Part shown: positions 3,001-30,929 of the stretch, piece after piece
Position numbering within the stretch: position 1 is the stretch's first letter
Layout: every line of letters begins with the position of its first letter
NCBI GenBank assembly: GCA_963590725.1
Contig: CAVAQB010000092.1
Location: forward strand, 32,864 to 96,863
Length of the DNA stretch: 64,000 nucleotides
Reading direction: 5' to 3'
Origin: Anaeroplasmataceae bacterium
Lineage (GTDB): Bacteria; Bacillota_I; Bacilli_A; Acholeplasmatales; Anaeroplasmataceae
Notes under the pieces: model-generated
Told to the model about the DNA's origin: nothing
What the model saw: only the letters and a program-made list of their open reading frames with translations
Databases searched by the model: none
Program-made: the position numbers and the translations under genes

Positions 3001-6000
3001 CTTCTCAAGCTAGTATTATAGTGTCTGACGAAGGTTTTAAAGGTGATCCTATAGAGGATTCTGAAACGCACGATGAATCTTTAGCACCTGAGGCGATTAA
3101 AAAATATTCAGAAAACAGAGTAGCATTATTAACAGATTTAACTAAATCGGGTAAAGATGTTGAATATATACCATTTATAGAATCTAAAAAGAAATCTAAA
3201 AAACCAGTACAATCTCCCGAATTAAAAAATGCTAATGATGTTATTCTCAAAGAAGGACATTGGATAATATATCCTGCAAATCCTGATATAGTAGCAAAAA
3301 TAATAAGTGTTGATTCAAAAAATAAAACTATAACTACTGAGCCTAGTATTCCAAATATAGATATAGATCAAATAAATGCTATATTTGACTCAGAGGAAAA
3401 TGCAAAAGCTACTTTAAATACACAAGAAACTGTAGAAGATTGGTTAAATAAAAATTCTATAGAAAAAGGTAATAAGGTTATAGAAAAAGGTACTAATGAA
3501 GTATATACTCTTATTGATATTGTAGAAGACGAAAACAACGAAAATAAACATATAGTTAAATTAGAAAATTCAAAAGGCGATAATCGTGAAATTAGTTTTG
3601 AAGATTTTTTCAAATCTAAATGGGAAAAATATGTAGATGAGCCTCAAATTACATCTATAAAATCTCCACAAGGTAAGGATATAACTATAGGTAGTTGGAT
3701 ATTACGTAAAGATGCCCAAACAGGTACAGGCATTATAGCTCAAGTTACTAAAATCGAAGGCAATAAATTAATTACAGAAGGAGATTTTTCTGAATGTTTA
3801 GTGTCTGATGTAATAAATGTTTCAAAGAGTAAATTAGGTTCATTGAAACAACAAGAGTCATATAATAAAAATTAGAATCTGAAATCAAAAGATGAAGTTT
3901 TGGATGACGATGGATTAGTTGATGATGAAAAATTACACGAACAAATAGAAACACTAAATTCAAAAATAAATAGATTAATTGATAATAATACTCCATTTGA
4001 AAATGATGCTTGTAATATTTATTTATATAGTTTTAATACTTGTGAAACAGGTGTTGATGAAGATATTGATGGTTTTCCAATTTAGTTTGGAGATTCCGAA
4101 TTAAAAACCAATCGTATAGATAGTATTAATGGTTTAATGAAACTTAAATTAAATAATAGATATTACAATTCTAATCCAAAACATCCTGAATTATTAACGG
4201 TTTAGCAATATACTGATATTATTTGTGAATTGAGAAAAATTATTCTTAATACAAAAAATAGAGACGATATAAGTAAAAAAATTCAAGATGTTCTTAGTAA
4301 ATATTTCGTTATTGAAAAAATTTCTAGTACATTTGGACTTAGTACACATATTGATGACGGTAGATCAACATCAACAGGAGAATTTAAAAGAGCTACTAGA
4401 ACACCTGATGAAAAGTTAAAATTTATAAATAATTTAGAAAATGATCCGAACGCTCAGAAAGCATTAAAAATTAGACGTAAAACAATATCTATTATTATTG
4501 CTGAAGGGGAATAGGATATATTGGAATTACCAATTTTAACTTTCGCTAATCCTTTGACATTATTTCAACAGTAGAAACTACCTTTATCATCAAATGATTA
4601 TAATGAATTATCTAAAATATCGGACTCTTATAAATTGTTAACAGAATTATTTAAAAAATTTAAAGATAACAATAAAGGTATCAGTAAATTAATTGCATTA
4701 TATTTAGGTATTAATATGGATGAAAAGCAAGGTTTGCATAATGGAGATTCTTTTATAGAATTTTCCGATAAAAAATGGACACCTAGTAATAATTTAACTA
4801 ATATGGGAGTTTCTGTAACATCTGATAATAGAGGTATTGATTATTTTGAACAAGGTTATAATATGATTCCTGTTTATACTGATATTAGTAAAATTGCGGA
4901 AAATAAAGCATTACATATCTCTGAATAGATTTATTATGTTGAAGATGATTTTATTTTAGATAATAACGGTGAACCTATTAAATTTGAAGGTAATGATTCA
5001 CTAATTCAATCAGGTATGCCTTTTGTATTAATTACAACTGATAATGATTTGTATGATGATACAGAAATGTATAATGCTTTTATAGAAGATTTAGCAAAAA
5101 TGTCTAAAGATACAACTAAAACCGCAAGAGTTAAATTAGTATATATTGTTCCACCTAGTGTAGGATTACAAGATTATGTTGAAAGTTTAGCTAAAGTAAT
5201 TACTAATCAAAACGGTGCTGAAGATATAGGATTTATATATACAGCTTATCATATTCTTCGAAAATTATCTGAAAAAGAAACTTTGTATAATTTGCTTTCT
5301 GGAAAAGTCACATTAAATAATGAAAAGAATTATATCAAAGCGATTAGTGATATGATTGAAGAATCTAAATCAAAAAATGAAGAAGAGTTAAAAAAATGGT
5401 TGAACGAAACTATAAATCATATTACGGTAGGTGTAAGTAAAAATAATAAACAAGGTTAGAGATTTGAAATATTCAAGCGTTTTCTACTCGATTTATATTA
5501 TCCATCGATGTCTAACGAAGGAAAAAAATCAAAAAATTCAGCAGGAAAACTAAATTAGGAAAACGCAAATTATTTAAACGATTTAGCTAAAAACATACCT
5601 ATTAGATATAGAGCAGCTAAAGATCCAAATGCAACAGATATAGGAATATTCCATCCAATTAAAAGCACAGGATATTTTTATAAAAATAATGCAGGTCAAA
5701 AAATTCCATTTTCTATTAACGCTGCCATTAATACTAATTAGTATATAGCGGATGTATCTAAATTATTAGATGATATATTAAATGTTAAAAAACATAAAAA
5801 CGATATGAGTTATTATATTAAACGTCATATTGTAGCTAAACCTAAAACAAATAATTCTTTAAATTCAGTTAAGACATTTGTAGAGAATGAAATAGGAATA
5901 AATGTAGATAGTTGTAAATCTATAGATGAAATAGTAAATACAATTAACAATAGTAGTAAATATATAGCTTTTAAGAATAAATATGATAATCGTATTACAG

Positions 6001-9500: not shown

Positions 9501-12500
9501 TTTTATAAAAGAATATAATTTAGCACATAGAAATAATCCTATATCTTTTACAGACCAAGTACATTTTATAGAAAATAAGGATGGAAGCATTGGAGTTAAT
9601 AGTGTATTACAAGGTTATCAATCACGTTTTAAAAATCCAACAGAATTAAATGAATTCTTTTATAGGAAAAGCACTGATGTTTTAGGTACTTTATTAAGAA
9701 ATAATTTTAGAGTAGACTTAGCAAATGATTCTAAACAAGCAACTTATATAAAACATTATTTCAAAGATAATCCAGAGTGGATTAATAAAGATAACGGTGA
9801 AATGGTTTTAGGTAAATTACGCATTTAGAATGATACTGAAACAGAAGTAGAAGTAGAAGTAGACATTATAGGTCAAAACCATTTAAACAATTTTTATTAT
9901 TAGTTATCTCATGATGAAGTAGAAACTAAAGGTGAAGTAATTACAAGGTTAAGTCCACTTAGTAAGATTAAACAAGCAGAAGCTGAACTTGAAGAAACTA
10001 TAAATAAACATAAAGACAAAGAAGGATTTGAATATACTTTAGCTAGAGAAAAACGTAGATTAGACGAATTAAAAAGACTACGAGAAGGAATAATAAAAAA
10101 AGAAATTTTATATAATCCTCAATTAATAGCTGATTTACATGAATTTGGAGTTGAATTTGAATTAAATCCTTTACTTAATCAATATAATCATTTAGATTAT
10201 TTGTTCTCACAAGAATTTATGATTTCTACTGTAGGTTCTTTGATAGCACATCCCGCTAAAGGAGCTTTGAATAATAGTCTTGAAGCATAGGAAGCAGCAC
10301 GTTTTAACGCACAACATAAACGTAATGTATCTTACACAGCAGCAATGCAAGAATTTACATTGGGTTTAATGGATGGAATACCTTCCGATTATAATATTGC
10401 TGTAGTTAAAGATGTATTTGATTTAGTTGGAAATGTTACTGGTAATGAAGATTCAGTAAAACCCTATGATGGTGCAACATTCGTAAATCCATTTATTGTT
10501 TATTTGGAAAACGCTTCATTAGGTGCAGCTAAAGCGGGTATTACTAAGAAACAATTTGTACATTTTTATGATGAACATACTGCTACAGGTGGTATTATCA
10601 AAACTTGTGGTTTTGGTATTACTAATGATTGGATGCGCAATTCTCCTAGACTTTAGAAGTTAATGCGTAAAATGACTAATGGAACTTGGATTGATTCTAA
10701 AAATTAGCCAGTGGATTTAGACATCACACATGCTTATGATGATTCAGAAATAGGATATGACGATATATATTTTAGAAAAAATGGACAATATTATCATATA
10801 ACATCTATTAAAAAAGTTGGAATTAATGCTTATGATATAAAAGGTACTGTAGTTGACGTAACAAATAAGTCTGGGCAATTACAAGCTAAATACAAAGAAG
10901 AATCAGATGAAGTAAATTTAAATTCTTTATTTGGAGGAGATGAAAAAACTCCTGTTATTATTGATAACAACTATAAGTTATGGGAAGTTTTTGGAGGTAA
11001 GAACTCACTCATTTTAGATAAAACTGAATTAATTCCTTCTGAAACATCTATTACTAACGTAGTTAAAACTATGAATAGTGTAGGTATTACTCAAGAAGAT
11101 GCTAGTAATGTTAGAACTCAAGATGATATTTATCAACCTCTTAAACATTCTGATATACATTATGTAGCAACAGAAGGAGCTGTAAAACAAGGAGCTGCTA
11201 ATATAAATACATCTGATTTATACGATGGAGATAAACCTCTTAACTTTATGAGAATTCATATGTACCAAGCAGGTATTCAGTTGGATAAAGAACATCACGC
11301 TGATAATAGTGAACTTTCTTTGATGACGCAAGTAGTTAATGCTTGCGCACATCTTGGATATAGTTTAGAGGAATCTTTAAGTATGTTCAATGCTCTACGT
11401 AGTATTACTGATACTGATACAGCTGTATTACTTGATCCAATTAAAGATTATTTATCATCTGATAATGAAATAAGTAAAGAAATTAATTATAAAAAAGCTA
11501 AAGAAGCTATTGTAAATACTGTATTAAAAGCAATATCTAAACAAACATTACAAGATAATGATTTATTACGAGTATTTGCAGACGATTTGATAACTACATT
11601 GAAAGAAGGTGGAGTACTAAAGTATGATGATTTCAAAGATACATTACCTGTTGATAACCCTGGAATTTATTCCAAATTCATGTCTTCTATATCTGTATTT
11701 TTAACTAAAACAGGTATTAAAATGAAAATTCCAGGAATTCTTTCAGTATTGACTCCCTCTTATGGAATAATGTTAACTTATCAAATACCTGTAGTAAAAA
11801 AGGATAAATCTATAGAATGGCATACTTGTAAATGGGAATAGGTTGAATCTTATGCGGAACAAGCAGGTATGTCTGTAGAAGAATATCTAAATACTATACA
11901 AATTAACGCACCTAAAGTAAAAAGTACTAAAGTTGAAAATAACGAAATAAATTTAAATATAAGTAATTTCCGATTAGGTAGAAGTTATTTTATGAGAATT
12001 GGAGGTAAAGATAAAGTTATTAAAATTGATAGTGCTAAGAAATATAAAGCTTGGAAACAAAGAATCTTAACCGATGCTACTATAACCTCAGTTGTAGAGG
12101 ATATAAGAAAAGGTAGAGAACTTGGAACTTACGATGTAGAATTTGAAGGAATAATAGATTCAGAAACATCTTTACATTCATTATATGATTTAGACTCTAT
12201 TTAGAATTTATATGATTTAAAAGATGCAATAGATAGTAAAGATAAAAATGTTCTTATAAACTTTGTTGCTAGGTTAGGTTATTCTGATTTTATAGATATT
12301 GAAAAAGAAACAGTTGATGTTAAAGGTGTTGAAAAAGCTTTACGTAAATTAGTACGTCGAGATTTAGCTGTTTTTTCTAAAGATGGTGGAAAATTCTTTG
12401 AAGATTTAAAAGCTAAAGAAGTATTTGTTAAGATAAATGGGGAAAATGTTTTGGTAAATCGTTCTACAATAAAGAAGACTGCTTATGAAATGGTTTTACC

Positions 12501-15500
12501 TAAAATATTCATAGAAGAATTTGGATTAGAAACTAATGACCAATTAGATGAAATAGAACATGACCCTATGTTCTTTAGTAAACGATTGGTATAGAAATTT
12601 ACTAAAGAAATTGACCCATTTCATTATGATATAGCTTTAAAAAATATTAGTGGTAAACATTGGTATTTAGCTGAAAAAATTGCTGTTAGTACAGCTAAGA
12701 TATTCCAAAAATTGGAAATTTAGAAATTCGTAGAAGATAATAAATTGTACTGGATTGATAAAAACGGAAATCAAATATGTGAATTATATAGTGATAAAGA
12801 TGAAGTTTACAGAGATCAAGAAGGTAATTATATAATAGTTCCAGGAGAGGATGAATCTAAAGGTATTTCTCAAGATGAAGGATTTGTGCATTATCTAAAT
12901 CATTTAAACTATTCTACTGTACAAATAAGTGGAAGTGAGCATGTAGATGATTAGCTGTTTGAAATATATCTTGATTTAATTAAACAAAGTAACAATCGTA
13001 CTGCAAGACGATATGTTAAATATATAACAGCAGAAAATGTTACAGGAAATGATTATACAACTGATGGTCATACTGATTAGGATTTAGAAGCTCAAGCAGC
13101 TGCGGATAATATGAGAGCAATGAGAGAAAGAAATAATTAGTTCTCATTATATAAAGAAAGTGATTTAGATTCTTCTGAAAATCCTATAACTAAAATGCTT
13201 GTTGAACTTGGACATGAAATACATTCATCGTTTATAAAGTCACTAGAAATAGTAGCTTCAAGAACACCATCACAGTCAATGCAGTCTTTTATGCCAATGC
13301 GTATAGCAGCATTTGATAATCCTAATTTAAATACTGCATACGTTAGTACAATGCAAATTTGGTTGCAAGGTTCTGACTATGATGTTGATGCCGTTTCTGT
13401 TGCAGCTTTTGCCATAGATAAAAGTGGCAAGCTTCCTTTATGGTCACCTTATGCTAATATAAGTACACTTTTTTCTTTAAATCAATCAATGGAATTACCT
13501 TTCCCTACTGGTAAAACTATGAATGTCATAGACTATAAGTTAAATCAGTTGAAAGATGAAGAAAGAAATGAAAAAGAAGCAATAATAAAAGAAATCTATA
13601 CAAAATATTTAAGATCTGGTTTATTTGTATTTGCTCGTAAAAATGATAGTTTTGTTTTAAAGTTTAATAATGAATCTAATAACTTACCTGCAATTAAAAC
13701 ATTTTTAGAAGAAATAAATGCAAATGGATTACCTCTTCCTTTTTAGAATTTTGAAAAAGAAATTCTCAACTAGGAAATTCTTGAAAAATTATTCCCCGAT
13801 GTTGTAGATTTTAGTACTTTAGATTTTACTAAATTAAATATATTTGATGATATATAGAAATTGGTAAATAATCATAACTTATATTTAACTAAATTACCTA
13901 AATCTAAAGTAGACCAAATATCTAAGAATAAGTAGATGTATGATATGTATAATATCAGCAATGACCCTATTAATTTGATTCAAGCTCAAGCTCCTGTGGA
14001 TGTAATGACAGGTCCTTTAAAGGAACAAGGTGATAAACAGCAAGCCAATAAATTACTTGGAAACAGAACTCCAGGAAATGTATTTAATAAAGCAGAATCT
14101 ATTGAAGATAATCAAGTTGGTAAAGATGGTATCGGTATTTGTGCTGTTGGTTTAAAAGGATTTTTTGGAGCAACTACTTATGCAAATATGCTTGCTAAAT
14201 ACGGGGAAAATGATGAACTCTCTCGTTTAGTTTTAGGTAAAGAGGGAATTAAAATACATGTTCCTGGACAAATAGAGCCTAAAGTATTCAAATATATGGC
14301 TAATATCAATCCTCAACTTAGTATGTTGGATGGAAGTAACACTGAAAAAATTCTTTATGAAGCTTTAACTAATAATAATTCTGATACTGATGCTGCATTG
14401 ATTCTATCAGCTTTACTTAGTTTGGCTACTGATAATGCCAAAGAGCTACAGTTGAGTAAATTGAATGCTGGAACTAAAACTATTGGAATGTATATTTATG
14501 GTACAGCTATAGGTATGGAATTTCAAGACTTAGTTAAAATTATGACTTCTGATGTAGCTTTGATGATTACAGATTTAACTAAAGGTAATGTATTTACTAA
14601 TGAAAAAGGTTTATTCTCCTTAGATAGTGTATTTAGTTATTTAGAAAATGGTCCAATGTCTTTATTAACCAAATACGCTAATCCTATTATTCATGACGGT
14701 ACTGTTTATACAAGCATATTATAGCAAGTGGGTAATTTTTTAAATAAGAAGATGGAAAATAAATATGGTAAAGATTCAAGAAATTTAACTTTAAATCAAG
14801 TTTTAGGAAAAATAGCTTGGATTGGTCAAACTAATAAACAGATGCAAGAAGAATGGAATAAATTAAATAAGAAAGGTAAGAGTGAATATAAAAATAATTT
14901 TTATGAATTCCGAGTTGCTAAACTAAAAGCTGAGCGTAATGAAAAAATAAAATTATTGAATGATATGAAAGCTAAAAGTAAGCTTAAATATTCAACAATT
15001 TTCGGAAGAGCATCTACTGAATACGCATCAGAACAAGATATGCAAAAATTCAACTAGTGTATAAGTAGACTTCAAGATTATGTCAGACAAGTATATGTTG
15101 TGAAAAATCATATGTCAACATATAGGTCTATTAAAACGTTGGCTGAAGGCGGTGAAGAATTTAGAGTATTAGGTCAAATTTTAGGTTTGAACCAAGGATT
15201 AAAAACTAAGCCTGAAGAATTATTGTAGAAAGTATATAGTATTCAAAATATAATCCAAGATAGATATAACGTAGAATAGAAAAAACAAAAAAGGGATTAT
15301 ATAAGAAATGCCTTACATGATACATCTTTAAGTAAAAAGATAAACATTCATAAAAATACAACTTGGAAAATGTTTGATTTATTCAAATTCTGTACAGATG
15401 ATGAATATAAAGCAGCTTAGACTAAAAAATATGATACAATAAAACACAGCATTAATATATTAGATGTAGCAGCTACTGTACCTCATTTTGCAGGATATTT

Positions 15501-16830
15501 ACAAACCTTAGCATTAGCCCATGAAGCTTGTAAAACAATAAGCTCTAAATATCGCACAATTGATAAATTAGCTGGAAATTATGAAGAAGGAAAATATGAC
15601 GGATATGCTAACAGATTGAAAGTAAAAAACTCACAAGATTTACAATATCTGTTTAAAGGACTTGGTAATTTTTATTCTGATTATATAAGACGTGCTTGGA
15701 TGATTGATAATGGTATTACTTTGGATATTCCTGAAGGAACAAAAATATTAGTTAATGGTAATTTGAAAGATTCAGAAACTATATTACAATTAGGAACCAG
15801 AGACGGTGATGCTTCATTTAAATATTTAATGGATTCTGTAATAATTCCTACTATTAAATAGGGTAAATTATCAGCATCTCCTAATATTCATACATTACAA
15901 TCATTATTAAAAAATAAATTTATATAGAATTTAACAACGAGTTTAATTACTAATACTCCTACTAAAAACCCTATAGTTCTTTATACTTTACCTATAAACA
16001 TGATGCCATCTTCTGATGAAGAGTATCAAGTATTTAATACTTATAAATCAGAATTTAATAAAATTCGAGATTATAAGTGGACTTTTAATAATGGAGTTCA
16101 AATACCATTAGTAGATTTATTCTATTATTACGGATTAATTGCACATTATGGTAAACAAGGCCCTCAATCTTTAATGCCTATTTTTGAAAATTTACATAGT
16201 TTTAAAAACTATAAAATTAATGATTTTCATAAATATGAAGCGGCTTTTAATGAAGATTTAAGTAATATTGGAGAAGAATCTTTATTACCATATATATTAC
16301 CTGTTAAAAGTTTATATGATATTACTACTAAAAAAGGATATGCTAAAGATCCAGATAATATGTTGACTGTGTTGTGGGTAAAACAAAGTAAAACATCTGA
16401 AGACTATGGTGATTATGATGAAGATTTAGATGATGAATATACAAGTAAAAGAAAAAAAGTAATTAATGGATATGTTAAACAAGTCAACCCGTTATTAAAT
16501 TCTGATTATGTTAATTCTTATTCCACCATTGCTAATATATCATCTAATTTGATAGATGGTCCTAAAATCTTTACATACACTAATAAAGAAAATGGAATTA
16601 CATATAATGTAAAAATAACAGAATTTAAATTTGGAGAAAAAGAAGTTTCTGTAGAAGGATTAGATGAATCTACTATTGAATTTTTGAAAAAACATCCAGA
16701 ATTGAATAAAGCTGAAGTAACTAAAAAAGTATCTAGTGTTACAGGTCGTAATGTAACTATTAGCGAAGAATATTATAATGCCGCTATAGAACAAGCTTTA
16801 GCAGAAGAAACAAATAATTGTCCTAAATAA
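6544..16830 (+). CDS. Giant RNA polymerase-like protein (crAss-like phage virion RNAP type), 3,428 codons with about 27 in-frame TAG
   Basis: ATG 6544 to TAA 16828-16830. Fourteen ORF-track pieces (6544..7416 through 16000..16830) share one frame and are separated only by TAG. SRTPSQS followed about 35 residues later by GSDYDVDAVS (DxDxD at 13375-13389) resembles the metal-binding loop of two-barrel RNAPs. Confidence 0.7.
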
Positions 16831-17891: not shown

Positions 17892-20800
17892 GTTGTGTAT
17901 ATTTATTAGACGGACATCAATTTAATTCTGAACTAGAATTAGATGATTTTTTAATATCGAAAAATAGGTTTAGAAAAAGACTTGGAGACATAGTTTTTCA
18001 AGAAAATAGAAAAGTTGCATAGTTAGATACTGTAAATAAACTTGAGGAAATATTAGAAGAGACACAAAAACTAAAAGAGAAAAAAACTAAATATAATAAA
18101 AAACTTTTAAGAGAAAAATCTCTTACTGAACTTTATTTAGATACAGGACACGCTGTAATTAGTGAAGAAAGAGAATCTGTAAATTTAAAGGCACCTTATG
18201 TAGGAGTAAACGCTTTTTTAAATGGATATATTAACGAGGAAGGCAAGTTATTGTTTCCTGAATTTATTCCAGATAATTATTGGGCAGAACAATATAAAAT
18301 GTGGGGTGATGGAAATACAGATGAAGAAACTCAAGAATTTTTAAAATCTTATGGCTTATTTACTAGTACAGATCCTCATTTTAAAAATAAGGATTAGCAA
18401 GAACAAGAAAAATGGAAAAATGCTATAGAAGATAAATGGAAACATCAATCTATAATAGGTGATGTAATGCATACTGTTTTACAAATGTATTTCAAAAAAA
18501 TAAACTCAACTAAGAAAGATGGTAGTCCTAAATATTTTAAAGATTGGATAGCAGAAAATCCAGAAAAAGCATTAGCTGCTTTTAAAGAACAATTATATAA
18601 TAAAGATTTACTTCAAACTGACGGTTCAAAAATAAAAGTAAAAAATTATATTAATGATGAACAATTATAGTCAGCTCTTGAAGTTTGTAAAAAAATAGAA
18701 GAAGAACTAAATATAAAATATCCTGATGCATTATATTATCCAGAATACGAAATAACAGGAAAAACTGCAAAACCTGCGTCTAATGGAGTTGACACAATAT
18801 TAGGTTCTATTGACTTACTGGTAGTAGATGCGAACGGAGTACCTCATATTATAGATTATAAAACATCTATACATCCTTATGAAAAATTTGACGATAGTAA
18901 AAAATTAGCATATACTTATCAGTTACTTACTTATGGACGTTTAATAGGTAAATCTGGATTAAACATACATGATTCAGAATATAACGTTATTCCTATTCAA
19001 ATATCTAATTTTCAATATATATAGAATAATAAAGGTAATGGAGAATTTTCATATTCGGGATTTCATTTAAAACAAGGCGAAAATATTTTTGTAGATTTGC
19101 GTGCAGAATATGCTAATACTCGAATTAATAAAAATCTTGATGAAATTATTGATTTTCCATATACCGTAAATGTTACAGCTGATGAAATGCTTACAAATGT
19201 TAGTAAATTTCAATAGAGTTTCTGGAAAAAATATACAACATTTAAGCAATATACTATTGAAGAAGCTCAAAAAATAGCAGAAGTTAATAACGCTTTAACT
19301 CCTAATGAAAATGGAGTATTAGAATTTAAGCCGAAATATATGAAAAAAACTGAAACCATTAAAGTTGATCCAAGAATAGAAAAAAATCCTAAAACTGTAA
19401 TGGTTAAAAAAGTTCAAGAATATCTTAACAATAAACGATATAATTAGAGAGATCGTTTAGTTACTAGTACTAAAAAAGCTTTAATAGAAGCAATTAATAA
19501 GAAAAATATTAACAGTGTTACATTTACTGGGGATATTGGTGAAGATTGGTTTTCTAAAATGATGAGTCGTTATTGTAGTGGTAATTGGGAAGTTTGTGAT
19601 GGAGAATCTTTTAAACCATTAGAAGCTTTAGGTATAATTACTTTATGGAATGCTAATAATAGACAATACAATTTTGTAAAAATTTCATTACAAAATATAC
19701 AAGGTCGTTTCCGTTTTGGTTCTAGTTCTAAAACAACTTTAGGTGGAGGATTTAAAAGTGATGTTTATTTTAAATCAAATCCTGATTCTATGATGATGGA
19801 CGCTACTTACGGCAATATAGAATTAATGGAAACAATGTACGCTTTAAACAAATTATCTGATATGTTTAAGGGAGATAATGCTTGTGTAGGTGATATATTA
19901 GTTGCAGATCCTTAGTTTGGTATAGGTGTTTCAGCAGCATCCAATTATGAATTATTAAAATGCTTTAATGAATTAGTAGAATTAAATCCTGAAGCATTAG
20001 GAACTAACAATTTCAAAAATGGTACAATTCCTATGGCATCTAAAGTACAACTCGCTCGTACAATGCTTACAGATGTTAAAATTAAAGAATCTGTTAATCC
20101 TTTTGCTTTCGGATAGAAAAATGAATCCACACTGGAAACAGCTCAAAGTAGTTTGGATAAAGCGTTACTTACTCCTGAGAATGTAAACGAACAAATAGAT
20201 GCATTGCAAAAAGTAATTAATTCATTAGAAAGTACTGATAAAAACAGAGAATTAGTTAATTATACAACTAACTCTTCTATTCTTGCTAAAGAACACGTAG
20301 CTTTATATAATCAATGTATTCTTGCAATAGCTGAATTAAAAGGAATACATTTTAGACAGCAAATTCGAGACCATGCACAATTAGTTGAATCACTAAATAT
20401 ATTACGTGATGGAGTTCAAGGTACTCAAATTGACAACCCTGGCAACTTGAAATCTGAAACTCTTAACTTAATTACTAAATTAGTAACGGAAGCATATCAA
20501 AATGTTAGACAAGATATATAGAAACCCGCAAGTGAAATATTACAATATGTAGAAAATTTGAAGAAAGAAAAAAACTTCGGGTGGTTTACAGAAAATACAA
20601 CAGGAAATCAAGCAAGTTTATATACACATATGTATGAATGGAGAGATGACGATGTTTATTTTAAAAATCCTTGGGATAATAATAATGATTTACTTGCAAA
20701 CGAGAGAGAATTTCTTAAATATGCAATACCTATAATTAATAAAAATCGGTTTGGTAAAAAAGCAGATCAAATGAGATTTGATAATCCTGACAGATATTAT

Positions 20801-24243: not shown

Positions 24244-24748
24244 ACTTTTGTAATTTATAAATTAAATTTTTGTTATCTTCTCTTAATCTATTATTATCTT
24301 TCTTTAAGATATTATTATCTTTTTTTAAGTTTTTAATTCTATCATCAGCATTTGTCATTTTTTCTTTAAACATTGCTACTGATATAGTATAATTCTGAAT
24401 ATCTATAGGTGTTTTTTTATTTAATAATTGATACTTATGTATTACCTTATTTTGTTCTTTAATCTTTTTCTTAGCTTTATTTAAAGCTAATCTTGTATTC
24501 TTAGCTCCTAAACTTTCCATGTCTTCCATTTCAGCTATTTCAGATTCTAAAACACCTAATTTATATTCTATAGATTTAACATATTCTTTCATCTGAGAAT
24601 CATATTCTTTATATTTAGAAAGAACATATTTAAGATTACGAATCATTAAATCTCTTATATCAAGAAAGCTATCGCTATTTGATAATATTTTAGCTTTGTC
24701 ATTCTCTTCTACACACTGAGTACGCGTATCAATTTCAGGTCTTTTCAT
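24191..24748 (-). CDS. Hypothetical coiled-coil protein
   Basis: Lys/Glu/Asn-rich heptad-like sequence with a short KKDNN(I/R)L repeat. It abuts the polB stop. Confidence 0.55.
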   Translation of the reverse strand: MKRPEIDTRTQCVEENDKAKILSNSDSFLDIRDLMIRNLKYVLSKYKEYDSQMKEYVKSIEYKLGVLESEIAEMEDMESLGAKNTRLALNKAKKKIKEQNKVIHKYQLLNKKTPIDIQNYTISVAMFKEKMTNADDRIKNLKKDNNILKKDNNRLREDNKNLIYKLQKYEKTNNLVCSNSVDGQD

Positions 24749-25770
24749 TATTCAAATAATTCTAATTGTCTTGTAAATATAGCATCTACTAATTTTTGGG
24801 CCTCTGTTATATAAAACATATAATTTATTTTATATTCAGATATTGGCTTTTTAATGTATTTATTAAATACAGTAGCACTATATCCAATATTAACACCTAT
24901 TTGTCTACCGTCTTTAAATTCTTTATATAAAGTTCCTCCATTAGTTGAAACATAATAACGAGTTGTTCTATCAAGTTTATCTTCTACTATTTCTGAATTA
25001 CGAATTGTTCTAAACATTGCGTCAGCTGAAGAATTAACTTTTAATCTTAGACAGAAATCAAAAATATCATTATCATTCATTATTGTTTCCTTAATTGGAA
25101 TCCCATATACAAAATAATTTTTAACGGCTAAAGGAACAACTCTCATTGAAGGGTCTTTATGATATTCTTTATATACTTCATAATCACCTTTAAGTTTAAT
25201 ATGTTCATGTTCTGGTGTGTTGTCTTCATATACAGCCAAATAATTATTTACGTCCCTTACACACATCTTAGAATATATGGTTTCTTCAATTGTTAAACCA
25301 GTTTCTTCAGTAAGTTGTTCATTGACTGCTCTAATTTTATTTAGATCTTCTCTAGGAACATATAAAGTTTGTCCATCAGTGTTAGTTTGAATGAATTTTA
25401 ATCTAGGACACACTTTCACCCATCTTTCAGACCACATACATATGAATATTTGACCTGCAATAGTTGTCTTAAAAGTATATAAAGGGTCATAAAGAAAAGA
25501 TTTTTCTTCGTTAGACTTACCATAAGTACCATTAAGAATAAGCTTGTATCCTTCTATTAATACATTATCACGTTGATCTTTAGGCTTATGTTTTTCAGCT
25601 AATCTAGCATCAATAAAACCTACATATTGTTCATTAAACTCAGGACCTAAATGTTCAGGATAAAGACCTAATGATTTAGAAATACTAGGGTAGAGTGACC
25701 CAACGTCATAATCTACAATAACCCAGTCATCATTAGTATCCCAAATTTTAGGTGGAGCACAGCCGTGCGA
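24748..25770 (-). CDS. Family-B DNA polymerase, exon 2 (polymerase motifs A-C)
   Basis: Motif A DYDVGSLYPS, motif B KLILNGTYGKS, motif C IQTNTDGQ. The ORF track starts it at a TTG (25773) that lies at the predicted intron 3' end. Confidence 0.8.
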   Translation of the reverse strand, partial: SHGCAPPKIWDTNDDWVIVDYDVGSLYPSISKSLGLYPEHLGPEFNEQYVGFIDARLAEKHKPKDQRDNVLIEGYKLILNGTYGKSNEEKSFLYDPLYTFKTTIAGQIFICMWSERWVKVCPRLKFIQTNTDGQTLYVPREDLNKIRAVNEQLTEETGLTIEETIYSKMCVRDVNNYLAVYEDNTPEHEHIKLKGDYEVYKEYHKDPSMRVVPLAVKNYFVYGIPIKETIMNDNDIFDFCLRLKVNSSADAMFRTIRNSEIVEDKLDRTTRYYVSTNGGTLYKEFKDGRQIGVNIGYSATVFNKYIKKPISEYKINYMFYITEAQKLVDAIFTRQLELFE

Positions 25771-26887
25771 CAATTATGTTATCATAAAGGCTTTTTATCC
25801 TTTATTTCTTATAGTTTTTGAATCCTATAAGTTCGGCGTACATTTTCACCTTCAGCGTTACCTGTTAAGGGTTGTTAACTCTTGGAGATATTTTATTCTG
25901 ATTTTTCAGGTTCAATCTCTACGCTCTACGGTGCTACAGACTCTTTAGTTTCTGTAGTTACCTCGGGGTTAAACAAAATATATTTTCGTTTTAAATAATA
26001 TTTAGCATTATCGTAAAATTGATGATTTGTCCAATCTAATAATGTTTTTCCTCCAGTTATATATAATCTATAATATTCACAAGTTTTCCCTTGTATTGTA
26101 TATTCCCTGTTTTTAAAAGGCTTAAAAAAATTCTTTATTCTTTTTCCAAATTTTAAAGAATTTAAAACAAAAGAAATATCAGTTGATCCTTTGTGACCAT
26201 CTCCATCAAAAAATCCTCTAATAAAATGTCTTATTAAATTATCAGGAATTATTTCTGGAATATCAAAATCATTATCAAAAGTTTTTTTAGGATGAATATT
26301 ATAATTTTCTAATGTTTCAAACATATGTTTGGAAGTCCATCTTAAAGTAGATTGAGGTTTACGATAATACTTTACTCCAGTTTGATTATTTGATATTTTT
26401 ATTTCTTTATACGGACATATAAATTTTTGAAATAATTTAATTGTATCTATGTCATCAATCGAATTATTAATTAAAAAACGATATGAATAACTATTATTTT
26501 CTTTTTCTTCTTTAATCATACATCCGTCAGCAATAAAAAATCCTAAAAGATATGCTTTTTCTTCAGAATCTATTACATCAAAAAAAGATTCATTAATTTT
26601 ACTATTTGAATTTTTCTTAATGTCTAAATTAAATTCCTTAATCATCTCTGATAACCTTTTAGCTGGAATATCTATTATTTCTGCAATTTCTTTAATATTT
26701 TTCCCTTTTGAATTTAATTTTAATATTTCTTCAGGATAAAATTTGTTAATATATTTTTTAAATTTCATAAATGTATAAATTTAGTTAATCCGAACTTAAT
26801 ACATTTACTCCAATTTTCAAACTCCTTCCCCGATTTTTAACAATTTTTTACATTTTATTTCTAAAATGGGAAGCTACACTATTTTTA
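25771..26887 (-). mobile_element. Group I-like intron carrying a LAGLIDADG homing endonuclease, interrupting polB
   Basis: A 1,117-nt insert separates two in-frame polB halves. Exon-1 end GGAGGU can pair with GCUUCC (26869-26874 on plus), giving a U.G wobble at the splice site. A P2-like hairpin lies at 26851-26868, the insert ends in G, and it holds a free-standing HE ORF. Confidence 0.7.
25926..26768 (-). CDS. LAGLIDADG homing endonuclease (double-motif) with N-terminal HTH
   Basis: LLGFFIADGCM and FIRGFFDGDGHK motifs. It has its own ATG and terminates with TAG. Confidence 0.85.
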   Translation of the reverse strand: MKFKKYINKFYPEEILKLNSKGKNIKEIAEIIDIPAKRLSEMIKEFNLDIKKNSNSKINESFFDVIDSEEKAYLLGFFIADGCMIKEEKENNSYSYRFLINNSIDDIDTIKLFQKFICPYKEIKISNNQTGVKYYRKPQSTLRWTSKHMFETLENYNIHPKKTFDNDFDIPEIIPDNLIRHFIRGFFDGDGHKGSTDISFVLNSLKFGKRIKNFFKPFKNREYTIQGKTCEYYRLYITGGKTLLDWTNHQFYDNAKYYLKRKYILFNPEVTTETKESVAP

Positions 26888-27790
26888 ACCTCCAAGACCA
26901 AAGTCAAACTTATAATTATGAAATATTACAGATTGCTGAAACTCACCTTTCTCTCCTTTTATTGTGATATGTTTAATAGTATCTAAAAATTTATTAAATT
27001 CAGGAGATTCTATTTTGCACCATTTTGGAATACAATCTTTTAGTTTAATTCCATTTGGTCTAGGTGTTCCTCCTGATTTTTTAAGATAATAAGGATTTCC
27101 ACCAGTTTTTCTTGCATATAAGTTTAACATTAATTCTTCTCCCATAGGAACATCTCCCATATTAAGAACATTAACATTAAATTTCTTATTTAAATCTTGC
27201 CTGAGTTTAATCTTATTCTTACCTTTATAAAGAGGATAGTCAGTTTTACCTAACGTAGTTCTTAAGAATAAATATGTAGCCCAAACATCGTTTTTATTAT
27301 ATTCTAGAATACACGTTTCATCACCTTCTTTACACCAAGTAGTATGATGAATTGGCATTTCTTCTACATTTTCCATCCTCATACATACTTCAAGATCTTT
27401 TAATGATGTCATCCTAGCTTTATTGTTATAATGCCAAATTTTATAAAGGTCTATTTGTTGAATATATTTATTCTTATCGGCAATAGTACTGAATTGTTGT
27501 TCTATTATTTCTTGAGATTTATTATATATTTTTTGAGATATTTCATATCCCGATAAATTATAATATTCAGAACTATGTCTTAATAAATGATGTTCTAAAG
27601 GATAATCATATCCTTCATTATTATATCCGACTTGCAATATTTTATCTCTTCTTAAATGAGCAACTAACTCATTATATTGATTTAGCCAAGGAGATATAAC
27701 GAATTGATACCATGTATCAGAATGAGGATCGTATCCAGTATATGTAAAGACATTACTTAAACATTCTAAATCGTAAATTTCTAGAATCAT
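26888..27790 (-). CDS. Family-B DNA polymerase, exon 1 (3'-5' exonuclease domain)
   Basis: ExoI IYDLECL, ExoII GYNNEGYDYP, ExoIII YNKNDVWAT. The ORF runs into a TAA (26885-26887) that belongs to the intron. Confidence 0.8.
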
Positions 27791-28635
27791 AAAATAGTTT
27801 TTAAATCAATACGTTCTCTTAACTCTTTTAATGCCTTACTTTTTAATTGTCCTACACGTTCTTCAGTAATTCCAAATTTAGGAGCGATTTGACTTAATGT
27901 TAAAGGATCACAATCAATTCCAAAAAACATTTGAAGAATTACTTTATATCTAGGTGCTAACTTACTTAAAACTCTTCTTATAGAAGATTTAAAAGAATCT
28001 TGAATTAAATTATTATCAGCATTAGTAGCGTTAGGATTGCTTATTATATCAACTAATGAATTCTTTTCTTCATCATCAAAAGTAGTATCTACAGAAACAC
28101 AATTTACACAATAACTATATGTTTTAGATATACTTTCTTCTGATAATCCTGTGAGTTCAGATAGTTCTCCATAAGAAGGTTTACGTCCATTAATTTTTTC
28201 AAACGTTTCGGTTTGTTTCTTTAATTGACGTAATAGTTCATTATGACCATTAGTGATTCTTATAGTATTACTTTTTAATATTAAAGCATCCAAAATAGCT
28301 TGTCTAATCCACCATACAGCATAAGATATAAATCTAATATCTTTACTTCCATCAAATTTCTTTCCAGCTTTAATTAAACCATAAGTACCTTCCTGAATTA
28401 GGTCATTAAAAGATAAACCTTGTCCTCTAAATTGTTTTGCTACAGAAACAACGAATCTTAAATTACTAGTAACTAACTTATCTAATGCTTTTTTATCTCC
28501 TAGTTTTATCTTTTTTGATAATATTTTTTCTTCATCTCTATCAATTAGAGGAATTTTATTTATATCTTTAAGATATAACTTAGTAGATATATCATCAATG
28601 TTAGTTATGCTCTTAGTTATTTTAAAATTTCGCAT
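27787..28635 (-). CDS. Sigma-70 family RNA polymerase sigma factor (regions 1.2-4.2, no region 1.1)
   Basis: Region 2: NLRFVVSVAKQFRGQGLSFNDLIQEGTYGLIKAGKKFD...YAVWWIRQAILDAL. Region 4.2: LSQIAPKFGITEERVGQLKSKALKELR. Length 282 aa. Confidence 0.85.
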   Translation of the reverse strand: MRNFKITKSITNIDDISTKLYLKDINKIPLIDRDEEKILSKKIKLGDKKALDKLVTSNLRFVVSVAKQFRGQGLSFNDLIQEGTYGLIKAGKKFDGSKDIRFISYAVWWIRQAILDALILKSNTIRITNGHNELLRQLKKQTETFEKINGRKPSYGELSELTGLSEESISKTYSYCVNCVSVDTTFDDEEKNSLVDIISNPNATNADNNLIQDSFKSSIRRVLSKLAPRYKVILQMFFGIDCDPLTLSQIAPKFGITEERVGQLKSKALKELRERIDLKTIL

Positions 28636-28935: not shown

Positions 28936-30153
28936 TTATTCTAAATCAAATCTAAAAATTCTAAGTTTTGGCTGTGTAGGGATTCCGTCATCAGAATAAT
29001 TAAAGAAAGTACATTCGGCTTTATGTCCTTCATATTTTTCTTCAAAATTTTCTACATATTCTGCTTTAGTTTCTCTATTTCCAACTGGCATTGCTTCAAA
29101 AGTACGACCATCTTCTAATTCACAAGTAAATGTCATATCTTCTGAACCACGTTTACCAAGTTTATATCCAACTACTTTAAAGTCTTCAGATTTATATTCT
29201 TTAATTTTAATAAGATTATTACAACGAGAACCTGGCTTATAAGGTTTAGTTGGATCTGTAATAACAGCTCCTTCAAATCCTTCTTCTACCCATTTATCGT
29301 GAAGTTCTTTCATATTATCCCAACCTGTAACGTGTTGATGATAAAGTATACGTACTTCTTGTTTAATATTATCATCTATAGGTGTCATATATACAAGAAT
29401 CCCAAGTTTATGATTCATCTTTTCCATCAAGAAATTCCAACGTTCTTGTGCTGGTATATCTGGATTAGCTATATCATAACAATCATAAACCCAATATTGC
29501 AGCCATTCACAATCATAAGCATTTTTCTCCATTCTAGCTGCACCACTAATTTGCTGCAGGGTTTTACCTCTTACAAAAAGTTCTCCATCAAGTACTATTG
29601 TAGGATTAGCTTCAAAGAATTTAACCAATGGTGTATAAGTACGTATATGCTTAGTAGAATAATCATAGTGTTCACCGCCTCTAGAAGCTGTATGCACTTC
29701 TCCGTCTTTGTAATAGAATAAAGCTTTAACTCCATCGAGCTTTCTTGATATTAACCAATCTTTATCAAAGATTTTCTTATTAGTAACCTTATCTGCTTGC
29801 TTAGCAAGTTGTGGTTTAATTACTCCAGCTTGATTTGTTTTAACTTCTCCGAATAAAGAGTTAAGTTCTTCATCTGTATATTCATTAGGGTGTTTTTCTA
29901 CTTCAATATATCCTTTATCTAGATAACCTTTAACAAAACTGTTAAATTGAAGTATTGATTGTTCTCTATGAGTACGTCCTGCTTTACCAATCTTAATCCA
30001 GGTATCTGGACTTTTAGTGATTTTACCTCTTACTTGTCCATATTCTCTAGTAATAAGAAATCCATGTTCAGGTTCTTTCCAATCTTCATCCCATTCTACT
30101 ACTACAAATCGAAACTTTCCAGTTGATGCTTTTCCTAATAGATATTTTTTCAT
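28936..30153 (-). CDS. ATP-dependent DNA ligase
   Basis: Motif I KLDGVK, motif III LDGELF, motif IV EGAVIT, motif V NLIKIK. Confidence 0.85.
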   Translation of the reverse strand: MKKYLLGKASTGKFRFVVVEWDEDWKEPEHGFLITREYGQVRGKITKSPDTWIKIGKAGRTHREQSILQFNSFVKGYLDKGYIEVEKHPNEYTDEELNSLFGEVKTNQAGVIKPQLAKQADKVTNKKIFDKDWLISRKLDGVKALFYYKDGEVHTASRGGEHYDYSTKHIRTYTPLVKFFEANPTIVLDGELFVRGKTLQQISGAARMEKNAYDCEWLQYWVYDCYDIANPDIPAQERWNFLMEKMNHKLGILVYMTPIDDNIKQEVRILYHQHVTGWDNMKELHDKWVEEGFEGAVITDPTKPYKPGSRCNNLIKIKEYKSEDFKVVGYKLGKRGSEDMTFTCELEDGRTFEAMPVGNRETKAEYVENFEEKYEGHKAECTFFNYSDDGIPTQPKLRIFRFDLE

Positions 30154-30213
30154 TAGTTATTATTATTTTCATACTGATATAATCTAAAATGTTTATTATT
30201 AATCTTATTAAAC

Positions 30214-30244
30214 AAAAAAACCTCTTGTGATTTCTCACAAGAGG
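30214..30244 (-). terminator. Intrinsic terminator upstream of the ligase-sigma-polB operon
   Basis: Perfect 10-bp stem cctcttgtga/tcacaagagg (30221-30230 / 30235-30244) with a 4-nt loop. On the minus strand it is followed by a U7 run (30214-30220). Confidence 0.75.
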
Positions 30245-30568
30245 AAAAAAATTTTGACAACATAACTATTTTAGTATATAGGCCCTTTATGCTGGGATAT
30301 ACACTTTTCTTATAAAACAAGGATATATCACACCAAACTCCTTCTCAGGTATTATTTTCGTTAACAATCTGAAATTGTCACTAAGGAGTCGTCGCCACTA
30401 ACCTATGTACACACAGTGATGTGAACACACCTGGAATTATACCAATCCTCATCATCGGATTTAGACGTTGCAAGGATTTACTCAGGCAGTTAGCTTTGAT
30501 AAGTGAATAATCACACAATTCTAATGTTTATTATGTTCAAGAACTAATTCACAAAGATGAATTAAGAT
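30245..30568 (-). ncRNA. Candidate structured non-coding RNA or regulated 5' leader; function unknown
   Basis: About 320 nt with no ORF longer than 24 codons and locally higher GC. Helices include ACUCCUU/AAGGAGU and AAUCC/GGAUU. Flanked by a promoter-like element and the terminator above. Confidence 0.4.
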
Positions 30569-30574
30569 TTGATA

Positions 30575-30605
30575 TAAATATAGAATTTAATCTTTAAAAT
30601 CCAAA
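30575..30605 (-). promoter_or_regulatory. Bacteroidota-type promoter-like element (TTTG-N19-TATATTTA)
   Basis: On the minus strand, TTTG (30605-30602), a 19-nt spacer, then TATATTTA (30582-30575). One mismatch to the -33 TTTG / -7 TAnnTTTG consensus. Confidence 0.45.
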
Positions 30606-30623
30606 AAAATTTAAATTAAAATT

Positions 30624-30929
30624 CTATTTTTGATGGTTTTTAACAAGTTCCCATATATCATTTAAAGTATCAGTTGGGATTCTCTTTCCGTCTTTATCTT
30701 CCATATATAAACTAGGGTTAAAAGACTTTTCATAGAGCCACCAATCTAGAGTATCGATTCCCTCTTCATCAAATAAATGATATATATGCATACTAAATAT
30801 TTTATGTGCATAATTAATTATAGGGCTATCAAATACAGGAATTCCTAAAACTTTAGATACTTCATCTACTTGTTTATCCCATTCTTGAAAACTTGTTATA
30901 AGTTCAATAAATTCTTTTTTACTTAACAT
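30624..30929 (-). CDS. Hypothetical protein
   Basis: Intact 101-aa ORF in the co-oriented array; terminates with TAG. Confidence 0.6.
   Translation of the reverse strand: MLSKKEFIELITSFQEWDKQVDEVSKVLGIPVFDSPIINYAHKIFSMHIYHLFDEEGIDTLDWWLYEKSFNPSLYMEDKDGKRIPTDTLNDIWELVKNHQK

Follow-up and report, generated by a model that had tools for sequence, protein, structure and literature searches.

Within a 64,000-nucleotide (nt) stretch of contig CAVAQB010000092.1 (assembly GCA_963590725.1; hereafter the window), a 470-nt gap on the minus strand separates a 101-amino-acid (aa) open reading frame (ORF; 30624-30929) from a gene for an ATP-dependent DNA ligase (28936-30153; Pfam DNA_ligase_A_M). We found that this gap holds a member of a family of structured RNAs – a core of ~300 nt within a predicted whole RNA of ~350 nt – with 13 copies in six phage lineages. 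On balance, we lean towards the interval 30214-30605 being a self-contained unit for a non-coding RNA (ncRNA) that would be independently transcribed and act in trans, as an accessory cassette or ‘RNA moron’. A sequence-only reading of this DNA had placed three explanations side by side: a stand-alone phage ncRNA, a conditional-termination leader and a DNA-level element such as an origin. The first is the best supported: the RNA covaries strongly across three unrelated contexts, and each copy is bounded by a promoter-like box and a terminator of its own. The non-coding nature, strand, family membership, contexts, terminators and patchy distribution of the element are shown, as are its secondary structure and a pseudoknot by covariation; we infer promoter use, a discrete transcript and action in trans. 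A discrete trans-acting RNA is favoured because the RNA recurs in three settings, of which one has no gene start after it, and because no antiterminator is conserved.

An RNA family in three genomic contexts

Distant copies were recovered from IMG/VR with DNA patterns that pair two short blocks across a gap of variable length. Exact-word scans with a single invariant block, run on viral contigs, metagenome contigs and GTDB genomes, gave only chance matches as judged by eye and by nhmmer. The 12 copies besides that of the window lie on IMG/VR viral contigs, from phages of 91-187 kb where full length was recovered. A covariance model of the family (R1) identified exactly one copy per locus, and neither this model nor nhmmer found a second copy in the window or at the other loci. 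The window copy scores 258.6 bits, against 323-364 bits for the other 12 (nhmmer: 237.9 against 292-332), and is the most divergent member – one that may be rewired or decaying. Searches of GenBank phages by blastn with the window copy and a canonical copy returned no further member, and literature searches returned no description of this RNA family.

Four copies lie upstream of the ligase gene: that of the window and those at three loci (L014, L015 and L060) whose gap aligns with the window gap at 84% identity. Three more (L063, L064 and L065), found by gapped-pattern matching, lie between a gene similar to that of the 101-aa protein and the ligase gene. Another (L066) lies upstream of a gene for the anaerobic ribonucleotide reductase NrdD (Pfam NRDD and ATP-cone), and the remaining five (L070, L071, L073, L074 and L075), again gapped-pattern matches, are lodged in a group I intron that interrupts a ferritin-like gene. 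By lineage, the structured domain precedes a ligase or NrdD gene in five and sits within an intron in the sixth.

The distribution of the element is patchy. The window ligase has thousands of relatives, and in more than 20 of those with 67-86% identical ligases the ligase gene begins within or right against the upstream gene, leaving no gap. Both the 101-aa ORF and the ligase gene are complete in the window and align end to end with their counterparts in element-free relatives. With three contexts and more than 20 empty ligase loci, the RNA is conserved independently of its flanking genes and varies in presence among relatives. One relative has a different arrangement: locus L026 carries a 127-nt gap (2375-2500) ahead of its ligase that contains only a hairpin (CTGCTCA...TGAGCAG) followed by TTT, the RNA being absent, and the ligase can therefore head its own transcription unit in some relatives. 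Among the RNA-less relatives, L027-L036 carry a gene of the Thg1-like (tRNA-His guanylyltransferase) family right after the ligase (3726-4490).

We aligned nine distinct sequences from the six lineages with plain MAFFT (alignment A4) and modelled 15 helices, comprising 12 nested helices, a 5′ H-type pseudoknot (Ha/Hb) and the pairings PK1 and PK2. In this alignment 94.8% of cells are paired, against 39-46% when partners are slid by 1-3 columns. Both sides have changed in 28 of 76 pairs, against 3-5 in the slid controls, and 0 of 500 shuffles reached 28. Homologous regions of other phages, where the sequence-only reading proposed to look for conservation and covariation, have both. The model on A4 includes invariant G-U pairs at five positions, and the transcribed strand is therefore the minus strand of the window. 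A comparison of the window with L014 alone, over 63 hand-defined pairs, counted 7 double changes that restore pairing, 5 single changes that leave it intact and 3 breaks. Blocks of 23 nt are invariant between the window and L014/L015, in which the synonymous sites of the flanking genes are just 67-81% identical. The minus strand of the element folds better than shuffled sequences, with a minimum free energy z-score of -3.07.

The fold begins with Ha and Hb, which form the H-type pseudoknot with an A-rich connecting strand (CAUAAUAAACAUU); Ha is 95.6% paired with 2 pairs changed on both sides, and Hb 100% paired with 1 such pair. One pair of hairpin H2 appears as CG, GC and UA. H3, which closes the central domain, is invariant in the alignment. 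The 3′ domain opens with a junction, UGGCGAC (30397-30391), that is invariant in the window/L014 clade and reads UAGCGAC in L063-L065. An ACUCCUU/AAGGAGU helix noticed in the sequence-only reading corresponds to H7 and covaries in relatives (ACCUCUU/AAGAGGU in L066). A 5′-3′ closing helix proposed by RNAalifold, UCUUUG/CAUAGGGGG, was dropped in favour of Ha and PK1, which have true double changes. Coordinates of all features are collected in Table 1.

PK1 joins the loop of H5 to the 3′ tail, and 4 of its 6 pairs have changed on both sides. It takes the forms AACCCU/GGGGUU, GACCCC/GGGGUC, GGCCCU/GGGGCC, AAUCCU/AGGAUU and AACUCC/GGAGUU in five lineages. PK2, a putative loop-strand pairing of GCUGG with a CCAGC loop, is invariant. 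The window copy departs from this arrangement: no more than 2-3 of the 6 pairs of PK1 are possible, PK2 is absent, and the 6 nt that make up a hairpin of all other copies (Hy) are missing. Its Hx loop UCACAUC (30423-30417) is complementary to GGUGUGA in the 5′ strand of H9 (30334-30328; -7.9 kcal/mol), a pairing that, from the sequence, may be a rewired contact in place of the lost PK2.

Table 1. Features of the element and its flanks, listed from 5′ to 3′ along the minus strand; positions are those of the window.
Feature	Position	Strand	Description
Promoter-like element	30575..30605	-	-33 TTTG (30605-30602), 19-nt spacer, -7 box TATATTTA (30582-30575)
Family core	30271..30571	-	Region matched by covariance model R1 over its full length; 258.6 bits, E = 6e-76
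5′ domain	30518..30562	-	Hairpin Ha (30562-30558 with 30539-30535); helix Hb (30544-30540 with 30522-30518)
Hairpin H2	30500..30517	-	UGUGUG/CACUUA; 100% paired, 2/5 pairs changed on both sides
Central domain	30397..30494	-	H3 (30494-30488 with 30403-30397) encloses H4, H5, Hx and H6
H4	30487-30484 / 30432-30429	-	3/4 pairs changed on both sides
Hairpin H5	30477-30445	-	Within H3
Small hairpin Hx	30428-30416	-	2/3 pairs changed on both sides
Hairpin H6	30416-30403	-	3/5 pairs changed on both sides
3′ domain	30336..30397	-	Junction, H7, H8 and A-rich strand
H7	30390-30383 with 30343-30336	-	2/8 pairs changed on both sides; encloses H8 and A-rich strand
Hairpin H8	30378-30364	-	5/6 pairs changed on both sides
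A-rich strand	30362-30344	-	AACGAAAAUAAUACCUGAG; enclosed by H7
Helix H9 and tail region	30281..30335	-	H9 (30335-30323 with 30302-30293), hypervariable tip
Tail	30292-30281	-	GCAUAAAGGGCC; in other copies pairs with H5 loop (PK1); window loop 30462-30457
Intrinsic terminator	30214..30244	-	CCUCUUGUGA-GAAA-UCACAAGAGG then U7; 10 pairs, 5 of them G-C, -15.2 kcal/mol
A/U-rich spacer	30154..30213	-	Terminator to ligase ATG (30153); contains the second copy of the 12-nt repeat

The element does not code for a conserved protein. A TTG-initiated ORF of 45 codons (30381-30518) exceeds the 24 codons that the sequence-only reading had given as the longest, and it is not conserved. Across copies the longest complete ORF has 40-63 codons in differing frames, and insertions or deletions (indels) of 1-2 nt separate the lineages. 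We likewise rejected a small protein on either strand, including an antisense ORF of 29-30 codons (30421-30510, +): starts and frames differ, its middle is the covarying H5, and the indels are not multiples of three. The earlier claim that this is the largest ORF-free stretch of the window does not hold, as stretches of 501-575 nt are present in a block of plus-strand genes. ORF-free stretches of 400-575 nt in that block lie at 546-1046, 9829-10344, 12205-12744, 15058-15615, 17892-18466 and 18671-19066; none of these six matched the RNA family. The local GC enrichment noted earlier is borne out, at 0.35-0.41 in the middle of the element (30300-30500) against 0.16-0.28 in the flanks.

The RNA belongs to no known family that we could detect. 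Rfam 15 (4,227 covariance models) gave no match at the gathering threshold in the whole window or for the element in five related loci, canonical copies included. At E <= 10 the only Rfam matches – PyrR, L10_leader and Yfr11 – were chance matches driven by the terminator. ARAGORN found no tRNA or tmRNA. A group I intron was rejected as the identity of the element: RF00028 (Intron_gpI) did not match it at E <= 10, the helix order (H3-5′, H4, H5, H4′, Hx, H6, H3-3′, H7-5′, H8, H7-3′) is not a group I topology, and the flanking genes are complete. We also rejected a guide-RNA locus of known type. No tandem repeat array was seen, and no IscB, TnpB, reverse transcriptase or Cas protein was found among the neighbours of any copy or among the ~37 window proteins covered by our Pfam or PHROGs scans; the neighbours are the 101-aa protein, the ligase, NrdD or intron halves, with no effector.

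Predicted transcription signals and the intron copies

The phages carrying this RNA family most probably infect Bacteroidales. This host assignment derives from genomic features: an RpoD-like sigma factor encoded in the window is 49% identical to Muribaculaceae/Sodaliphilus RpoD, and a Shine-Dalgarno-like 4-mer precedes just 1 of 64 genes. The TTTG/TAnnTTTG promoter consensus of Bacteroides (PMC7366714) is therefore relevant here. In B. thetaiotaomicron, the combination of a transcription start and an intrinsic terminator characterizes canonical intergenic small RNAs (sRNAs) (PMC7366714).

The sequence-only reading had identified a TTTG-N19-TATATTTA element ahead of the RNA. Its position (30605-30575) was right, but the pattern by itself is at chance level, with 13 occurrences found in the window against 12.3 expected, and carries weight only because its position is conserved in relatives. 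Perfect TTTG-N19-TATGTTTG elements are found at the same place in L014/L015, and L064 (TATATTTG) and L071 (TATTTTTG) have -7 boxes 12-25 nt ahead of the first hairpin. Across all lineages, TAnnTTTG-like boxes keep a conserved distance from this hairpin. The RNA start is predicted from the sequence at about 30569 +/- 3.

At the 3′ end, a perfect 10-bp hairpin with a GAAA loop and a U7 tract was correctly recognized in the sequence-only reading, 60 nt ahead of the ligase ATG. Terminator-like sites number 6 in a 7-kb region, where 1.5 are expected. A strong hairpin followed by a U-run lies 25-55 nt past the core in all six lineages (-12.8 to -21.1 kcal/mol), so that the predicted RNA ends in an intrinsic terminator as a stand-alone RNA gene should. 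The terminator sequences are mutually unrelated among the six lineages, except for those of L063 and L066. These two (L063, ~11470-11510, -; L066, ~1235-1280, -) are homologous and have compensatory stem changes (CCCUAG/CUAGGG against CCCAAA/UUUGGG), and a UAGCU motif is common to the L063, L066 and L014 terminators. Such resemblance suggests that, in some lineages, the 3′ hairpin may do more than terminate transcription.

As the sequence-only reading had observed, no convincing separate promoter lies between the terminator and the ligase (30154..30213). A perfect 12-nt direct repeat, ATAATAAACATT, occurs at 30534-30523 and 30199-30188 and brackets the RNA core and the terminator. It is imperfectly kept in L014/L015, and we rejected it as a target-site duplication, since the window contains the motif no more often than chance predicts and no such target is present at the empty sites.

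We examined the intron context at L071. Removal of 739-745 nt joined the ferritin frame into an ORF of 190-192 aa and extended the Pfam Ferritin match from 6-126 to 6-134 of 142. The 3′ part of this intron aligns with an intron in the DNA polymerase (polB) gene of the window and with one in the dUTPase gene of locus L001, and the three introns have in common the blocks AGAATAAAATAT..CCAAGAGT, GAAAATGTACGCYGAAC and GGATAAAAAGCC..GATAACAWAATTG. Directly 5′ of AGAATAAAATAT is a cargo slot. The LAGLIDADG ORF of the window intron ends just ahead of this first shared block, as does a 253-aa ORF in the dUTPase intron, and in L071 it is the RNA cassette, with its -7 box and its own terminator, that ends there. 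From these matching end points before AGAATAAAATAT, the RNA fills an endonuclease-type cargo slot.

The introns themselves extend over ~2280-3285 in the dUTPase gene of L001 and 1834-2578 in the ferritin gene of L071. The window intron (25774-26884, -) is of group I type, with its LAGLIDADG ORF at 25926-26768, and went undetected by Rfam even at E <= 1. The sequence-only reading had reported that two blocks of the RNA element match the 5′ part of this polB intron. We attribute this to chance, given that 74 11-mers of the element have a further occurrence in the window, when shuffled versions of it yield 67; nhmmer found no match between the intron and the RNA element.

We propose the following mechanism. 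Host-type RNA polymerase, with a host or phage RpoD-like sigma factor, would initiate at the TTTG/TAnnTTTG-type promoter near 30569. The transcript would fold compactly into the 5′ H-type pseudoknot, a central five-helix domain and the 3′ domain, closed in canonical members by the long-range pseudoknot between H5 loop and 3′ tail. Most transcripts would stop at the strong intrinsic terminator at 30214, with a read-through fraction serving the ligase, sigma factor and polymerase genes. As a best guess at its role, the RNA may bind or sequester a protein of the host or the phage in early infection. The cassette would be a horizontally exchanged accessory unit that has settled at no fewer than three sites of the DNA-metabolism module, one being the cargo slot of the group I intron.

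Competing explanations

Several observations weigh against an independently transcribed, trans-acting RNA. Every copy points the same way as the DNA-metabolism genes that it closely precedes, a layout that also fits a cis-acting leader, and in L064/L065 the ligase ATG is just 11 nt past the U-tract, from which we conclude that the ligase is reached by read-through. We found no target, and no candidate for a partner protein either beside the copies or among the ~37 scanned proteins of the window. The promoter pattern is not enriched in the window, and its -33 element is weak in several lineages. The covariation derives from nine sequences in six lineages, whose relatedness inflates the shuffle tests; the slid controls are fairer and answer this in part. 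Lastly, both tertiary pairings are lost in the window copy, which is possibly nonfunctional in its own phage.

The co-oriented layout would be accounted for if the RNA were a leader – a riboswitch-like sensor, a factor-dependent attenuator or a put/EAR-like antiterminator – whose fold decides passage through the terminator into the DNA-metabolism genes, those for ligase, sigma factor and polymerase in the window and for NrdD in L066. We consider this unlikely, though it has points in its favour. The element is always on the coding strand, directly 5′ of replication or nucleotide-metabolism genes, its complex pseudoknotted fold is like that of large riboswitches, and with no convincing promoter beyond the terminator, expression of the ligase would need read-through. 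In L014 the tail and the 3′ strand of H9 are complementary to the 5′ arm of the terminator (-16.8 kcal/mol), to a degree reached by 0 of 500 shuffles in one test and 8 of 300 in a second. Elsewhere this does not recur: duplexes of the terminator 5′ arm with upstream RNA are at the level of dinucleotide shuffles in the window, L063, L064, L066 and L071, with L014 marginal. We thus rejected a conserved antiterminator, as complementarity is at chance in 5 of 6 lineages. The earlier suggestion of conditional termination is weakened: the need for read-through in L064/L065 speaks for it, the chance-level complementarity speaks against it, and one lineage is intronic, with the L070-75 cassette followed by the 3′ half of the intron rather than a gene start. 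The linker between core and terminator is also unconserved, no Rfam riboswitch, EAR or leader family matches, and under a put-like mechanism a terminator kept by selection in six lineages would be without a task.

Mobility invites another explanation: an RNA-only selfish cassette that spreads into cognate empty sites, either as a ribozyme or by guiding a nuclease whose gene lies elsewhere. Its slot in the ferritin intron is that of the LAGLIDADG gene in the homologous polB intron of the window, its ligase-locus site falls between genes that overlap in empty relatives, as with free-standing homing endonuclease genes, and it is patchy among close relatives across three insertion contexts. Still, we hold such a cassette to be very unlikely. 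The element has no ORF and encodes no site-specific nuclease, and no nuclease, reverse transcriptase, TnpB or IscB gene adjoins any copy or is found among the scanned window proteins. There is no match to a ribozyme family and no terminal repeat or target duplication save the one AT-rich 12-mer at chance frequency, and the ~3 relocations that suffice can be yielded by ordinary recombination. A broader version – a protein-free selfish or homing RNA or, more mildly, a trans-acting phage RNA of a new class that hijacks or disarms a host factor and that phages exchange as an accessory gene made of RNA alone – would be a long shot; the selfish or homing form would explain the niches in common with homing endonuclease genes, namely the intron cargo loop and the junction of overlapping genes. 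That the DNA itself is the functional element, as a replication origin, packaging site or recombination site, strikes us as extremely improbable, despite its place within the replication module, its AT-rich flanks and its inverted repeats. The GGATATA(T)CAC-type repeats that had suggested an origin are both arms of H9 and hairpin H2, not iterons. Helix arms stay paired through compensatory changes, G-U pairs would be A-C mismatches on the other strand and so fix the strand, the long-range pseudoknot covaries, and other phages have the element in an intron and upstream of NrdD. Cumulative GC skew runs monotonically through the region with no turn; by these sequence criteria, we rejected a replication origin. 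A different kind of doubt concerns the window alone: the family may be functional and the window copy a decaying relic without function, an improbable but serious prospect. The scores of this copy are the lowest in the family, and it has lost PK2 and Hy, with PK1 reduced to 2-3 of 6 pairs. Set against decay are its helices, kept by the 7 compensatory changes relative to L014, its intact promoter-like box and perfect terminator, and the possible replacement contact between the Hx loop and H9.

Known systems and the surrounding genes

Phage morons, known from lambdoid phage genomics, are independent promoter-gene-terminator units between conserved genes. The element resembles them in its own promoter-like box and terminator, in its place between genes that are contiguous in relatives and in its presence or absence among close relatives. 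It differs in that the cargo is a large structured RNA, not a protein gene, and is also found within a group I intron. Twin-ribozyme group I introns carry the GIR1 lariat-capping ribozyme as cargo, and here too a second structured RNA occupies a peripheral loop of a group I intron. GIR1 evolved from a group I ribozyme and works for the mRNA of an endonuclease encoded downstream; the RNA described here, by contrast, is not followed by an ORF, lacks a group I-like helix order and has its own promoter-like box and terminator. To our knowledge, an ncRNA gene with its own transcription signals that replaces a homing endonuclease as the cargo of a phage group I intron would be the first case. Like riboswitch and attenuator leaders and the HK022 put/EAR systems, the element has the order promoter-like box, structured RNA, terminator, operon, on the coding strand 5′ of functionally related genes; unlike them, it has no conserved terminator/antiterminator competition and no family match, and it also occurs where no gene start follows.

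ROOL and GOLLD are large ornate ncRNAs associated with phages and prophages (Rfam; cryo-EM, PMC12286853). They share with our RNA a complex, pseudoknotted and strongly covarying fold, a link to phages, a function that is not known and the lack of an adjacent partner protein. They differ from it in sequence and structure (no Rfam match), in length (580-800 nt, against ~300 nt here) and in a tRNA neighbourhood that is lacking here. Bacteroides intergenic sRNAs such as GibS (PMC7366714) are likewise non-coding transcripts bounded by a TAnnTTTG-type box and an intrinsic terminator, as we predict for the element. Compared with these sRNAs (PMC7366714), our RNA is ~3 times longer, is almost fully paired with pseudoknots, has no long single-stranded seed and is phage-borne.

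If our interpretation is correct, abundant uncultured large phages of gut Bacteroidales carry a new family of large pseudoknotted RNAs to which none of the 4,227 Rfam families is related. Its 300-nt core, 28 covarying pairs and supported pseudoknot provide a defined object for asking what role large orphan phage RNAs play, and phages that are alike except for having or lacking the RNA offer natural pairs for comparative and genetic tests. For annotation it is a warning that RNA genes can hide in these phages where an intergenic gap looks ‘empty’ or an intron loop lacks an ORF.

Downstream (3′) of the ligase, the window encodes a 104-aa protein, the RpoD-like sigma factor and the DNA polymerase. 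On the 5′ side of the element are a dUTPase, ThyX, NrdD, a primase-like protein, a DnaB-like helicase and other helicases (Pfam/PHROGs). The genes on both sides place the element within a replication and nucleotide-metabolism module. The sigma factor (27787-28635, -) is a full RpoD-like protein with regions 1.2-4, and only three sequences among 5.8 billion are its relatives at >=83% identity. L014, L015 and L060 carry this sigma type at 83-84% identity, with the next best sigma at 52%; the next-closest sigma factors on other large contigs reach <=52%, and those of ligase-locus relatives are 40-44% identical over the full length. Its 49% identity to Muribaculaceae and Sodaliphilus RpoD is thus on a par with the former and above the latter.

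The window polymerase is split into two parts, which match positions 56-333 and 335-653 of the 663 in PHROG 1252, by the 1.1-kb intron with its LAGLIDADG endonuclease gene just before the DxxSLYPS motif. Another intron, a group I match in Rfam (70 bits), lies at 3906-4150 (-) of L063, ~7.4 kb downstream of the RNA, and the phages of this RNA family are rich in introns. The window enzyme (24748-27790) is of the PolB type; the closest relatives of the window instead encode a family A polymerase (Pfam DNA_pol_A; L014:4755-5735, L015:4755-6200, L060:4285-5475) in which tblastn detected no similarity to the window enzyme. This difference is a polymerase swap inside one phage clade.

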